A DNA stretch of 31,879 nucleotides, the filler included, from an uncultured bacterium (lineage in GTDB: Bacteria; CAZDME01; JAYEMH01), in the NCBI GenBank assembly GCA_964506785.1. It is 15 parts of 15 records of this genome, joined end to end, with 100 filler letters (N's around TTAATTAATTAA, not from the genome) between each part and the next. Parts side by side here need not be neighbours in the genome. Positions count along the whole stretch, not along the records: positions 7,817 to 10,149 come from CAZDME010000100.1; 14 more parts are not named here. The stretch is one strand, 5' to 3'. The position numbers and the translations under genes were made by a program. The notes under the pieces are model-generated. The model did not search any database. It saw only the letters and a program-made list of their open reading frames with translations, and was not told where the DNA came from. Below, piece after piece: positions 8,126 through 9,212 of the stretch (position 1 is its first letter; each line of letters starts with the position of its first letter).

Positions 8126-8203
8126 ATGGCCGAAGGCCATACAACTTTAGGGGGTTATTAATCCAAAGAAGAAGGGGGAGTAATGTCCCCCTTCTTCTTT
8201 GAT
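8126..8203 (-). repeat. 78-nt two-hairpin module, copy A
   Basis: 16-bp stem caaagaagaaggggga/tcccccttcttctttg plus 6-bp triloop hairpin; 65/78 ungapped identity to the reverse complement of 9135-9212. Confidence 0.9.
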
Positions 8204-8342
8204 CACAGAAATTACTACCATAATAAGTTCCGCCAGGAAAGGGGTGACAGCAAAGCGCCATGGAGGGGAAAACCTGGGTTTTTCCCTATGGGATTTTTTG
8301 AGAACTGTCATAGCATTTCTATGAGAATTGATCCGAAAAAAA

Positions 8343-8432
8343 TGGCGGAGAGGCAGGGATTCGAACCCTGGGTACGGAAAACCGTACACTTGCTCTCCAG
8401 GCAAGCCTGATCGACCACTCCAGCACCTCTCC
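8343..8432 (-). tRNA. tRNA-Ser(GGA)
   Basis: Cloverleaf: GGAGAGG acceptor, CTTGC-CT GGA GA-GCAAG anticodon arm, long variable arm, CAGGG-TTCGAAT-CCCTG T arm, encoded GCCA. Confidence 0.97.
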
Positions 8433-8438
8433 GCACAA

Positions 8439-8792
8439 TCATGGAGATTTTTTAAAACTCTCTACGGCATCATTTTCAGTTTCATATAACTCGAAGATTT
8501 TATCAAGCTGGGTAAGTTGTAATACGCTGCGGGCCTCGTTCGATAAACCACTTAACTTTATTTCACCATTACTCTTCCGCACTTCTTTAGTAAAAAAAAT
8601 AATCGTTGCAATCACCAGCGAGGAAAGAAATCCCACCTTAGAAAGGTCTATGATAAATTTAGTCTCTCCCGCCCGGACTAATTCATTCAGTTCTTTTTTT
8701 ATCTGTTCTTTCTGTTCAAAGTTGATTTCATTGAAAGTAAAATTGATAATATCAACATCTTGACTTTTAACAATAGTAAGAATTTTTTCCAT
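8439..8792 (-). CDS. STAS domain anti-sigma-factor antagonist
   Basis: IIDLSKVGFLSS, GEIKLSGL, LTQLDKIFELYETENDAVESF; SD AAGGGG; ends 6 nt before the tRNA. Confidence 0.9.
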   Translation of the reverse strand: MEKILTIVKSQDVDIINFTFNEINFEQKEQIKKELNELVRAGETKFIIDLSKVGFLSSLVIATIIFFTKEVRKSNGEIKLSGLSNEARSVLQLTQLDKIFELYETENDAVESFKKSP

Positions 8793-8828
8793 AATGAACC
8801 CCTTTTATTGATATAAGTTTTGTTGTTT

Positions 8829-8857
8829 ATTCTACATATATATTTCTGATTTGTCAC
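8829..8857 (-). promoter_or_regulatory. Putative sigma70 promoter for STAS-tRNA-Ser(GGA)
   Basis: GTGACA-17 bp-TAGAAT on the minus strand. Confidence 0.5.
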
Positions 8858-8970
8858 TAATTTTATTGATAAGTTTATAACTCAAACGGTGATTATGTTT
8901 TTTGCTAAATACGGGAAAAATGTAGAGAAATCCATTATATTCTGGTAAAATTAGTCTGCATGTTGAGATG

Positions 8971-9058
8971 GGAGAGGTGGCAGAGTGGTTGAATGCGGCG
9001 GTCTCGAAAACCGTTGTGCCTTAGGGTACCGGGAGTTCGAATCTCCCCCTCTCCGCCA
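8971..9058 (+). tRNA. tRNA-Ser(CGA)
   Basis: GGAGAGG acceptor, GCGGT-CT CGA AA-ACCGT anticodon arm, long variable arm, GGGAG-TTCGAAT-CTCCC T arm, GCCA. Confidence 0.97.
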
Positions 9059-9065
9059 TTGTATT

Positions 9066-9099
9066 AAAAAATCCGGCTAATATTAAAGCCGGATTTTTT
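9066..9099. terminator. Bidirectional intrinsic terminator after tRNA-Ser(CGA)
   Basis: aaaaaatccggct-aatattaa-agccggatttttt. Confidence 0.85.
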
Positions 9100-9134
9100 G
9101 TTAATAATGTACTGCGAATTATGCTATTTTCTGC

Positions 9135-9212
9135 ATCAAAGAAGAAGGGGGATATACTTCCCCCTTCTTCTTTGGAGTAATAACCCCCTTGATTTGTGTG
9201 GTCTTAGACCAC
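9135..9212 (+). repeat. 78-nt two-hairpin module, copy B
   Basis: Same 16-bp stem (9137-9152/9159-9174) plus gtggtc-tta-gaccac. Confidence 0.9.

Follow-up and report, generated by a model that had tools for sequence, protein, structure and literature searches.

MITEs and cis-mobilisable elements are non-autonomous derivatives of IS or integrative elements. Elements of the IS200/IS605 type insert 3' of a 4-5-nt target, produce no target duplication and have a TnpA (Y1) partner; REP/REPIN sequences, palindromic units of 20-40 nt, number tens to hundreds, with units on the flanks of a RAYT gene; and the folded single-stranded attP of the CTX-phi type consists of two inverted copies of the attachment sequence lying close together near one end of the element. 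For islands that insert within tRNA genes, sublocation classes were reportedly set out by Williams in 2002. Intrastrand triplex motifs were recognized in bacteria decades ago and, to our knowledge, neither a function nor evolutionary proof that the third strand is important has been established for them. The BoxC, PIT and TMECO elements are such motifs and are distributed among classes I-IV in the account of Holder et al. 2015 (PMC4666352), where an ITxF motif is characterized by a purine, a pyrimidine and a (reverse) Hoogsteen block on one strand, with short loops, 6-15 triads and at most one mismatch. Free-standing GIY-YIG homing-endonuclease cassettes are exemplified by the seg genes of phage T4, as described in PMC2988022.

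The window analysed here, a stretch of 31,879 nt, consists of 15 small contigs of one MAG joined by N linkers, and the real genomic context is limited to a single contig, C100 (7817-10149). This contig contains two copies of a 78-nt module, A (8126-8203, minus strand) and B (9135-9212, plus strand), which align ungapped with 65 matches in 78 positions when the first is reverse-complemented and are paired by a repeat search over 77 nt (84%). As the sequence-only reading of this DNA had it, each copy lies downstream of, and in the same sense as, a tRNA gene, identified here as a tRNA-Ser (Table 1); hairpin 1 has two perfect 16-nt arms and a 6-nt loop in both copies, with four of the six loop bases different, and hairpin 2 (ATGGCC-TTC-GGCCAT in A, GTGGTC-TTA-GACCAC in B) differs by two double changes. 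The two-hairpin fold, computed for both strands as DNA or RNA, has z-scores of -5.3 to -7.5, and in each of the eight folds none of 200 shuffles folded as well. The same reading rightly doubted that the module is simply a terminator: a separate terminator hairpin, complete with T-run, stands between the tRNA gene and copy B, and the outer pairs of hairpin 1 co-vary. Hairpins 1 and 2 are followed by GGATTAAT and GCTGGAAT, respectively, and not directly by a T-run, as a G+C-rich intrinsic terminator would be; the inner 5-6 bp of hairpin 1 together with CTTCTTCTTT alone score as terminator-like, on both strands. The Rfam search that had been suggested yielded no Rfam 15 family for the module: at the gathering score, the window contains RNase P and two tRNAs and nothing else, in the scan of C100 at E<=10 no model comes close to its gathering score within the module (the highest-scoring, miRNA and sRNA models, reach 19-29 bits, compared with cut-offs of 55-115), and nine extended loci of the family described below give only tRNA, tmRNA and one group I intron at gathering.

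The module is real, as had been claimed, but it had gone unnoticed that it belongs to a larger cassette with copies of the tRNA 3' end at its boundaries, one of which (D3, Table 1) can be seen in the window itself. The reading that we consider probable, short of confident, is that the module is the structured core of a small, non-autonomous insertion cassette that targets tRNA ends and has a triplex-forming structure. Copy A is a full cassette and copy B a truncated one, which retains the terminator, hairpin 1, the linker, hairpin 2 and a decayed end copy; the latter matches the GGA-type tRNA end in 15 of 17 positions and the CGA-type end in 13 of 17, as counted by hand from the sequences. The window cassettes contain no ORF. 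A 50-aa GIY-YIG-like start elsewhere on the contig (9749-9600, minus strand) has no Pfam match.

Table 1. Features of elements A and B in the window
Feature	Position	Strand	Evidence
tRNA-Ser(GGA), CCA encoded; target gene of element A	8343..8432	-	ARAGORN; Rfam tRNA
Body of element A, a non-coding insertion (as read from the repeat and the ortholog) beginning right after CCA	7966..8342	-	exact 20-nt direct repeat D3; absent in G149 ortholog (L176)
Far end of A: direct repeat of the 3'-terminal 15 nt of tRNA-Ser(GGA) plus TTTTT	7946..7965	-	D3, 100% = 8338-8357
Hairpin 0, with AGGG(G)AAAA as its purine 5' arm and pyrimidines in the 3' arm	8264..8287	-	family alignment; run lengths
CTGTCA-C4T3-CC motif, candidate third strand for hairpin 0	8236..8250	-	run-length correlation across members
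Hairpin 1, copy A: 16-bp homopurine/homopyrimidine stem, 6-nt loop	8164..8201	-	inverted repeat; outer-pair covariation
Linker, copy A, candidate third strand for hairpin 1; plus strand reads AGGGGGTTATTAAT	8149..8162	-	12/14 canonical purine-motif triads
Hairpin 2, copy A: 6 bp, TTC loop	8126..8140	-	folding; covariation
Segment antisense to the tRNA 3' end/element start junction, 24 nt, 88%	8098..8121	-	inverted repeat; anti-tRNA segments at same position in other members
tRNA-Ser(CGA), target gene of copy B	8971..9058	+	ARAGORN; Rfam
Terminator hairpin between A-run and T-run; conserved start feature of many members	9066..9099	+	inverted repeat; family view
Hairpin 1, copy B	9137..9174	+	inverted repeat
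Linker, copy B, candidate third strand	9176..9189	+	11/14 triads, opposite strand
Hairpin 2, copy B, TTA loop	9198..9212	+	folding
Degenerate tRNA-Ser 3'-end copy closing truncated element B	9270..9286	+	inverted repeats

The contig itself is probably mis-binned, because its tRNA-Ser genes are present a second time, in divergent form, on contig C35 of this MAG. Apart from the two copies in the window, the MAG has none, the tRNA genes on its other contigs lacking the cassette, and 60 relatives of the MAG are also free of it (best match of 22 nt, E = 0.0014), so that the MAG's own family is the wrong place to look and C100, again, seems mis-binned. The contigs from sequencing runs that align to C100 are fragmentary. 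One of them, from a single run, joins position 7945 to 8339, skipping 7946-8338, with just 22 letters on one side, which is a hint and only that; no excised or circular form of the cassette was seen.

Altogether, 47 distinct copies were collected from Omnitrophota or 'Planctomycetia' MAGs and from metagenomes; the cassette is non-coding and 250-450 nt long, with the 78-nt module as its core. A scan with the hairpin-1 pattern, one genome per species, gave 73 loci, among which 14 (16 sites) contain the whole module; the remaining 59 were dropped as unrelated terminator-like hairpins with only the stem core in common. The metagenome scan gave 17 loci. A covariance model (R1) detects two to seven copies in each of five genomes and has matches in 10 of the 151 genomes of the Omnitrophota-type phylum, and among viral contigs two generic hairpins fit the stem pattern and none fits the stem-plus-linker pattern. 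The available portions of the literature on Omnitrophota and related elements, including passages of two Omnitrophota preprints, contain no description of the cassette.

The association with tRNA genes, first noted for the two window copies, extends to 17 tRNA species and to tmRNA: counted within 900 nt upstream, a tRNA or tmRNA gene on the same strand precedes the element in 36 of the 42 copies with enough upstream sequence (the other five of the 47 have less than 300 nt), and the element is always oriented in the sense of the tRNA. No tRNA was called upstream of six of the 47 copies, two of which show the 3' half of a tRNA-Met. Three loci have tmRNA genes as targets (L112, L158, L160). The same target species (Lys, Asp, Gly-CCC, Phe, Arg-CCT and tmRNA) are occupied in more than one genome, a pattern that is also in keeping with long vertical residence. 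In the tree, copies from separate tRNA genes of the same genome group together (G181, Lys and Gln in G062, Arg and Asp in G064, Gly and Glu in G061), and these clusters were counted as probable cases of intragenomic spread.

Many copies close with a copy of the tRNA 3' end of about 15-29 nt that most often begins in the T-loop. The exact repeats are 20 nt long in the window and 16-31 nt long at eight other loci (L041, L043, L059, L063, L123, L138, L139 and L147). The repeat starts at -21 in L063, L123, L138 and L147, and this position is not exclusive, the start varying from -15 to -30 across the loci. Tandem units with a tRNA-end copy between them are present at three loci (L043, L063, L138), and other, unrelated short inserts bounded by tRNA-end copies are found at L043, L059 and the Ser-GGA locus of G061. 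In G149, the tRNA-Ser(GGA) gene directly joins the flank that follows the distal repeat in the window, with ~90% identity over ~100 nt; judging from this alignment, the locus (L176) represents an empty site and makes up the only occupied/empty pair found. A deletion between the repeats would give the same picture.

Across 24 aligned copies, the outer pairs of hairpin 1 and the pairs of hairpin 2 stay paired through double changes, in agreement with the earlier suggestion that the structure is under selection. Eleven pairs show double changes, compared with 5.5 in shuffles, and 93.6% of the cells are paired, compared with 87.1%; in both cases, none of 500 shuffles reaches the observed value. 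Hairpin 2 alone comes in at least 10 different stems. In 15 of about 22 copies it retains the loop C-TTC-G, which reads C-GAA-G on the complementary strand, and this makes recognition as single-stranded DNA plausible; wobble pairs favour neither strand (one G-T compared with one A-C).

The covariation also involves a third block. One arm of hairpin 1 is always purine and the other pyrimidine. The linker changes in step with the purine arm, at each base and in the same polarity, G corresponding to C, and A to A or T. The same-polarity matches number 151, compared with a permuted mean of 131.0 and a maximum of 144 (0 of 3000 permutations), and the G-to-C matches 63, compared with a mean of 52.5 and a maximum of 61 (12 distinct arms), with the proviso that, the family members being related, the permutation p-values overstate the case. 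In a second such trio further upstream, that of hairpin 0, the length of the C-run correlates with that of the G-run and the T-run with the A-run (Spearman 0.61 and 0.73, respectively; n=37). This same-polarity covariation points to an intrastrand triple helix of the BoxC/PIT kind. On the plus strand of copy A, the linker as (reverse) Hoogsteen block is followed by a 1-nt turn, the purine arm, a 6-nt loop and the pyrimidine arm; the eight loop-proximal triads are all canonical (A.A, five G.G and two T.A), and the full window-type set has two misfits in 14. Judged by its sequence, this strand conforms to the ITxF motif as PMC4666352 describes it and is a candidate for an actual triplex.

The proposal that the linker is a Watson-Crick partner of AGGGGG did not hold: the linkers of divergent members (such as L162, L165, L139, L082b, L154) have no complement in the element and follow the purine arm in the same polarity, over 10-16 nt. 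Watson-Crick pairing of linker and 5' arm does beat permutation (56 compared with 48.2), only because the G-run types are nearly symmetric. A G-quadruplex or i-motif of four G5/C5 tracts was dropped as well, given that divergent arms with G2-G3 keep the mirror rule.

Much of this covariation could also be accommodated by a structured ncRNA gene, an sRNA or a tRNA-trailer RNA, that rides on or adjoins tRNA genes and whose hairpins and C-rich single strands act as RNA, for example by pairing with G-rich ribosome-binding sites or in tRNA 3' processing via the anti-tRNA segment, and we regard both the gene and these roles as unlikely. Such a gene would account for the compensatory changes that keep three hairpins paired, for the folding of the module as RNA (z = -5.3 to -7.1), for the constant tRNA sense of the element and for the complement of the 3' part of the cognate tRNA that is found at a fixed place in six of the 19 members tested, above every shuffle; furthermore, pyrimidine-type intrastrand triplexes are possible in RNA according to PMC4666352. 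However, a T-run terminator parts the tRNA from the module in most members, and a conserved promoter was not found: for the candidate on the sense strand (CTGTCA, a 16-19-nt spacer, TATnAT), agreement with the -10 box varies between 1 and 5 of 6 bases over 23 members, and the promoter scan of element A was empty. The linker has A as frequently as T opposite A-T pairs, which fits the purine motif, one that RNA cannot form. An RNA triplex would need, at neutral pH, five consecutive C+.G-C triads. In any case, an event at the DNA level is required for the boundary repeats, the tandem arrays and the empty site.

Such an event could have been the integration of ordinary islands or prophages carrying an integrase into tRNA or tmRNA genes, between the T-loop and the 3' end, with the module an attP arm with protein-binding sites that survives after deletion of the interior; we give this reading a small chance. 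A target gene that is restored while its 3' fragment, displaced to the far end, forms a direct repeat, as observed for D3 and at the eight other loci, is the hallmark of islands as described in PMC4383910, tmRNA genes are among the targets, and the unrelated inserts bounded by tRNA-end copies would fit as well. Against such decay, the complete architecture recurs with both its ends at 17 tRNA species, an outcome that random deletion would not produce, and each tRNA would call for a core of its own if a single integrase family were at work. Repeats that bind proteins should conserve sequence rather than co-vary in pairs and trios, the viral contigs are without matches, and neither a tyrosine nor a serine integrase is encoded by any of the 92 ORFs scanned in the loci (ORFs of at least 110 aa or chosen downstream ORFs).

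The same 92 flanking ORFs include no transposase or reverse transcriptase, and no enzyme gene was detected in or next to the module cassettes. Sister cassettes, among them those at Ser-CGA of G061 and at Val of G063, do encode a putative nuclease. In G061, a 359-nt insert behind tRNA-Ser(CGA), bounded by an 18-nt tRNA-end repeat, contains a 96-aa GIY-YIG ORF (E = 9e-16), and six of 21 small GIY-YIG ORFs, from five genomes, lie just behind a tRNA gene on the same strand; three of the GIY-YIG ORFs have no NCBIfam name. One GIY-YIG unit (L191) has three blocks of the 3' domain and the AGGCGC|CGA junction in common with the module units L057 and L123. The link of GIY-YIG to the module consists of this one unit with its common 3' domain, and of the common type of site. 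We know of no duplication of 15-29 nt created by classical homing and of none of 21 bp made by GIY-YIG homing enzymes. A GIY-YIG nuclease of ~80-100 aa is nonetheless the likeliest, putative mobiliser, because it is the only enzyme found inside a homologous cassette.

HUH Y1 transposases (RAYT-like), which would move the cassette as a REP-like or IS200/IS605-type single-strand element, seem a very improbable source of mobility. The Y1_Tnp family is present in 122 of the 151 genomes, including all 10 with the cassette, stable hairpins with, on the strand opposite, a C-GAA-G loop are suited to recognition as single-stranded DNA, and in G181 one Y1_Tnp gene with its own inverted hairpins on the flanks abuts a cassette. 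But the family does not discriminate, being present also in 112 of the 141 genomes without a cassette match, the gene adjoins only one of the 47 copies, and its hairpins share nothing obvious with the cassette. Two to seven copies per genome, with no consistent RAYT link, are not what a REP-like repeat, as suggested from the sequence, would show, and the tRNA-end duplication of about 15-29 nt is present; the cassette thus falls outside REP/REPIN with RAYT and outside IS200/IS605 or PATE as these are commonly defined. A native, immobile part of the tRNA operon (an extra terminator or insulator that was never inserted), for which one could cite the constant position downstream of tRNAs, the terminator-like score of the inner hairpin 1 followed by CTTCTTCTTT on both strands and the recurrence of the same tRNA species across genomes, is scarcely credible, given that only two to seven tRNA genes per genome have the cassette, that the tRNA genes on the other contigs of the MAG and the G149 ortholog lack it, that a separate true terminator already stands ahead of the module and that the tRNA-end boundary copies and tandem arrays are left unexplained.

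Under the favoured reading as an insertion cassette, the element would lodge exactly behind the CCA of tRNA or tmRNA genes in Omnitrophota-type bacteria and spread by means of an enzyme supplied in trans. In the tRNA sense, the full cassette is modelled as a terminator hairpin, hairpin 0, a spacer hairpin and a C-rich strand mirroring hairpin 0, followed by hairpin 1, the linker mirroring it, hairpin 2, a short anti-tRNA-3' segment, a variable 3' domain and the copy of the tRNA 3' end, mostly from the T-loop (-21 from the end). Each hairpin, once single-stranded, may fold with its mirror strand into an intrastrand triple helix, putatively of class III on the tRNA-sense strand and of class I (purine motif) on the opposite strand, and the role of the triplex fold could be that of a structural signal acting in cis or of a barrier to polymerases. 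A bolder proposal, which we put forward tentatively and with doubt, is a hitherto undescribed class of miniature mobile cassettes that would read the T-loop-to-CCA landmark, insert behind CCA, duplicate ~21 bp (56-76) and bring along a terminator, with autonomous GIY-YIG (~90 aa) and non-coding forms; the core, as single-stranded DNA of the opposite strand, would consist of two purine-motif triplexes and C-GAA-G mini-hairpins, and the antisense tRNA-end copy would be a target guide or one half of a folded attachment site.

A third strand that changes together with the duplex in divergent copies makes selection for a triple helix directly testable and, if the reading is true, this would be the first natural triplex held by three-way compensatory evolution. 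The catalogue of tRNA-targeting mobile DNA would then extend to integrase-free elements of a few hundred bases, and the tiny GIY-YIG proteins, common but unexplained, would be possible mobilisers reading a feature common to all tRNA genes. For annotation, cassette arrays may be the origin of tRNA-end fragments and of duplicated tRNA contigs seen in Omnitrophota MAGs.

Among the systems outlined at the outset, the cassette resembles the CTX-phi attP in that the tRNA 3' part is present twice, once antisense and once sense, 20-150 nt apart, but its target is a tRNA gene and not dif, it has no phage genes, any Xer dependence would be hypothetical and the single-stranded stage is putative. Like MITEs, it is short, non-coding, structured, present in few to many copies and presumably moved in trans by the enzyme of a related autonomous element; unlike them, it lacks both the terminal inverted repeats of known IS elements and a short target duplication of fixed length, and is strictly site-specific at the tRNA landmark. 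The sister cassettes are similar to free-standing GIY-YIG units, each being small and selfish, lying between genes and having a single short GIY-YIG ORF, whereas the window cassettes have no ORF, and insertion at a tRNA end with a 15-29-nt duplication sets the family apart. With tRNA/tmRNA islands of the Islander type, as treated in PMC4383910, the cassette has in common insertion in the 3' part of a gene that stays intact and a displaced 3'-end copy at the far boundary. Crossover often in the T-loop and tandem accretion at one site are further common features; the cassette differs in having neither protein genes nor an integrase in cis or nearby, in its length of 0.25-0.45 kb, compared with kilobases, and in forming one closely related family on at least 17 tRNA species and tmRNA.

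A further likeness is in the triplex motifs. As in the BoxC, PIT and TMECO elements described in PMC4666352, the purine, pyrimidine and (reverse) Hoogsteen blocks are consecutive on one strand with short loops, the motif is intergenic, G/C-rich in its core, repeated in the genome and without an assigned function, and one strand falls into a purine-motif class while the complement falls into a pyrimidine-motif class. TMECO is of class II (Y-R-RH), with 9-nt stems of the CCCTCNCCC type, and the cassette is of candidate class I/III, with arms of 14-16 nt; the module does not match the class II TMECO/BoxC pattern CCCTCNCCC-N3-6-GGGNGAGGG-N3-GGGNGAGGG, its blocks being different and in the opposite order. 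TMECO, as far as that account goes, has no link to mobile elements or to a gene class, and the account, to the same extent, does not include three-block covariation of the sort observed across divergent cassette members. In the cassette, the motif is embedded twice in a larger unit that is tied to the 3' ends of tRNA and tmRNA genes and has tRNA-end copies as its bounds.

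The two copies of the 78-nt module (hairpin 1, linker and hairpin 2; copies A and B) match without gaps at 65 of the 78 positions, each with a perfect stem of two 16-nt arms closed by a 6-nt loop in which four of the six bases differ, and hairpin 2 carries two double changes between them, all as described in the sequence-only reading. The two-hairpin fold was recovered for both copies and both strands, as DNA as well as RNA (eight folds; z from -5.3 to -7.5), and none of 200 shuffles equaled it in any fold. The proposal that the structure is under selection was borne out across the family: in hairpins 1 and 2, 93.6% of the cells are paired compared with 87.1% after shuffling, and 11 pairs show double changes compared with 5.5, values that none of 500 shuffles reached. 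The module, taken at the outset to be unnamed, indeed matches no Rfam family, and its interpretation as a REP or as a terminator is rejected. The idea of a free-standing two-hairpin motif does not hold: the object is a larger insertion cassette at tRNA and tmRNA gene ends, with two triplex-type modules. Two features had been missed, namely, a direct repeat (D3) in which the 15 final nt of tRNA-Ser(GGA) and TTTTT reappear unchanged 392 nt downstream, closing element A, the whole insertion behind this tRNA, and a 24-nt segment directly after hairpin 2 that is an inverted copy (88%) of the stretch where the tRNA end meets the following sequence.

Coordinates, along the window, of the cassette copies, their surroundings on contig C100 and one feature of another contig
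Feature	Position	Strand	Remark
Contig C100	7817-10149		2333 bp
Tandem 25-nt direct repeat	7891-7940		84%
Direct repeat D3	7946-7965 and 8338-8357		exact
Element A	7966-8342	-	
24-nt inverted copy	8098-8121		
Module copy A	8126-8203	-	
tRNA-Ser(GGA)	8343-8432	-	
STAS-domain ORF	8439-8792	-	Pfam
tRNA-Ser(CGA)	8971-9058	+	
Module copy B	9135-9212	+	
Decayed end copy, copy B	9270-9286		
Short ORF	9749-9600	-	no Pfam hit
Degenerate tRNA-Ser(TGA) 3'-end copy	9882-9898	-	15/17
tRNA-Ser(TGA), 3' half	10095-10149	-	cut by contig end
RNase P RNA, bacterial class A	21243-21630	-	307.7 bits; different contig

In the tRNA sense, the conserved unit begins a few bases from the CCA and consists of ten parts: a terminator hairpin with an A-run on one side and a T-run on the other, followed by GTTAATTCGG; hairpin 0, CATAGGGGGAAAC..GTTTCCCCCTCTTG; a spacer hairpin of variable length, often C-TTC-G closed; the motif CTGTCACCCCCTTCC; hairpin 1; the linker AATAACCCCCTAAAG; hairpin 2; a short segment in antisense to the cognate tRNA's 3' portion; a variable 3' domain; and a copy of the tRNA 3' end in sense orientation. 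All ten parts are present in copy A; copy B is limited to the terminator, hairpins 1 and 2 with their linker, and an end copy that has decayed. A C-NNN-G-closed hairpin 2 was picked in 25 of the 44 members, with three picks falling inside other parts, so that about 22 remain; these have at least 10 different stems, and the loop is TTC in 15. An antisense segment whose score exceeds all of 40 shuffles is present in 6 of the 19 members tested (L057, L063, L102, L112, L123 and L147), 31-72 nt after hairpin 1. The top-scoring segment, that of L118, lies 220-242 nt after hairpin 1, within a partial second unit. This partial unit (1700-1760 of that locus) starts within the 3' arm of hairpin 1 and is fused to the T-loop-like CGATTCCCC, a joint that suggests that the hairpin and the tRNA T-stem recombined through their C-runs.

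Exact tRNA 3'-end copies close the units at nine loci (L041, 26 nt; L043, 18; L059, 18; L063, 29; L123, 21; L138, 31; L139, 16; L147, 21; window, 20), the copy starting at -21 (C56, T-loop) in four loci, and the tandem units of L043, L063 and L138 have such a copy between them. In the relative G149, the orthologous tRNA-Ser(GGA) is directly joined to the flanking sequence found beyond the distal repeat in the window (~90% identity over ~100 nt); because this flank follows the tRNA at once, element A is either a 392-bp insertion or was precisely lost between the repeats in G149, and it is a discrete unit in either case. The tandem repeat beyond element A is kept in G149, and is therefore native flank. 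In a maximum-likelihood tree of 44 copies, all of them short sequences, copies from the same genome at different tRNAs appear to cluster in several cases (Tyr with Arg-CCG in G181, Lys with Gln in G062, Arg with Asp in G064, Gly with Glu in G061), and the only grouping by tRNA is that of the Lys copies from two sources. Unrelated short inserts of 110-360 nt, likewise delimited by copies of a tRNA 3' end, come before the cassette in L043 and L059 and follow both tRNA-Ser genes of G061 (L174); in general, tRNA tails appear to be hot spots for small cassettes.

A same-strand tRNA or tmRNA gene lies within 900 nt upstream of 36 of the 47 distinct copies, usually 16-230 nt before the model start; five copies have less than 300 nt of upstream sequence, and for six no such gene was called. 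Two of these six, L050 and L162, have the 3' half of tRNA-Met, and the true exceptions are L062, L122, L157 and L166. In L050 (1699-2330), a group I intron (Rfam, 79.2 bits at 2026-2243) interrupts the tRNA-Met gene; a 117-aa PD-(D/E)XK endonuclease ORF lies just upstream, and the cassette is located behind the 3' exon. The host genes are those of 17 tRNA species (Ser-CGA, Ser-GGA, Ala-CGC, Ala-GGC, Asp, Lys, Glu-CTC, Met, Arg-CCT, Arg-CCG, Arg-TCT, Phe, Gly-CCC, Gly-TCC, Leu-CAA, Gln-CTG and Tyr) and, at three loci, tmRNA.

Scanning one genome per prokaryote species with the hairpin-1 core pattern yielded 73 loci, 59 of which are unrelated terminator-like hairpins; the full module with linker, mostly also with hairpin 2, is present in the other 14 (16 sites), all from MAGs titled Candidatus Omnitrophota or 'uncultured Planctomycetia'. 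The stem-plus-linker pattern matched 17 metagenome loci, among them longer, near-identical versions of C100, and no viral contigs. The covariance model R1, built from 24 copies (alignment A2), detected 2-7 copies per genome in each of five genomes and hits in 10 of the 151 sampled genomes of the phylum, some with wholly different hairpin-1 sequences.

Both module copies of the window are confined to contig C100, and DNA search and the covariance model found no further copies in the MAG. The window comprises 15 short contigs (C97-C108 and C110-C112) of one MAG, joined by N44-TTAATTAATTAA-N44 linkers, so that the genes flanking C100 are not its true neighbors. The tRNA-Ser genes of C100 are duplicated on contig C35 of the same MAG by a clearly divergent TGA/CGA/GGA set, and the STAS protein has orthologs, 63-64% identical, in three genomes of the same phylum as the other module copies, where tRNA-Ser(CGA) and (GGA) also flank it; C100 is therefore probably DNA of an Omnitrophota-type organism binned into the wrong MAG. 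About 200 nt downstream of tRNA-Ser(TGA) there is a degenerate copy of its 3' end with no module between, and this interval is one more short insert bounded by a tRNA-end copy. The RNase P RNA was detected elsewhere in the MAG.

No integrase, transposase or reverse transcriptase was detected among the 92 ORFs scanned around the cassettes, which are housekeeping genes. HUH Y1 transposase genes (Y1_Tnp) occur in 122 of the 151 genomes of the phylum, all 10 cassette-bearing ones included, and being nearly universal, are uninformative. In L165 (G181:C15, reverse-strand 1703-2342), the cassette behind tRNA-Tyr has a 174-aa Y1_Tnp (RAYT-like) gene directly at its far end; this gene has flanking inverted hairpin repeats of its own, different from the cassette hairpins. 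Within units of this type, a single kind of enzyme was detected, a small GIY-YIG nuclease: in G061, the insert behind tRNA-Ser(CGA), 359 nt long and ending in an 18-nt tRNA-end copy, contains a 96-aa ORF (Pfam GIY-YIG, E = 9e-16). Such ORFs number 1-6 per genome in five genomes, 6 of the 21 just behind a same-strand tRNA. Behind tRNA-Val of G063, a 796-nt GIY-YIG unit occurs twice in tandem with the boundary at -21, and shares three conserved 3'-domain blocks and the AGGCGC|CGA junction with the module units L057 and L123. This shared 3' domain is one clear link and no rule, so a role of the nuclease in the cassettes is possible but less likely than not. The short ORF on C100 starts MHYVYMLRGK..., similar to the beginning of the small GIY-YIG proteins of sister cassettes, and may be a decayed nuclease gene.

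As the divergent members show, hairpin 1 without exception pairs a purine 5' arm with a pyrimidine 3' arm, and the bases after the 3' arm, read 5' to 3', reproduce the sequence of the purine arm with C for G and A or T for A; in L162, for example, GAAGGAAAGGGAGGA is later followed by AATCCATACCCTCCT. Among 12 distinct arms, albeit of related members, this rule yields 151 matches; permuting the linkers between members gave 131.0 on average and never more than 144 (0/3000), and the 63 G-to-C matches compare with an average of 52.5 and a highest value of 61. Hairpin 0 has the same relation to the CTGTCA-CnTm motif (G5A3~C5T2, G5A2~C5T1, G4A4~C4T3, G6~C6; Spearman 0.61 and 0.73, n = 37, two false picks included). 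Because a same-polarity complement is incapable of Watson-Crick pairing and the linker has no other partner within the element, it would be the third strand of a triple helix, and we judge the chances of triplex formation, as predicted from sequence, to be about even. The literature searched, including passages of two Omnitrophota preprints, describes no insertion cassette of this kind. On the strand opposite the tRNA, 12 of 14 triads in copy A and 11 of 14 in copy B are canonical for the purine motif, which is favored on this strand by the free choice of A or T opposite A-T pairs, the runs of five G.G-C triads and the C-GAA-G loops; wobble pairs give no choice of strand. As the purine motif is unable to form in RNA, according to Holder et al. 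(PMC4666352), it points to single-stranded DNA, a reading that we put forward tentatively. In the scheme of that paper, with class III being R-Y-Hoogsteen and class I reverse Hoogsteen-R-Y, the tRNA-sense strand would represent a class III motif and the opposite strand a class I motif.
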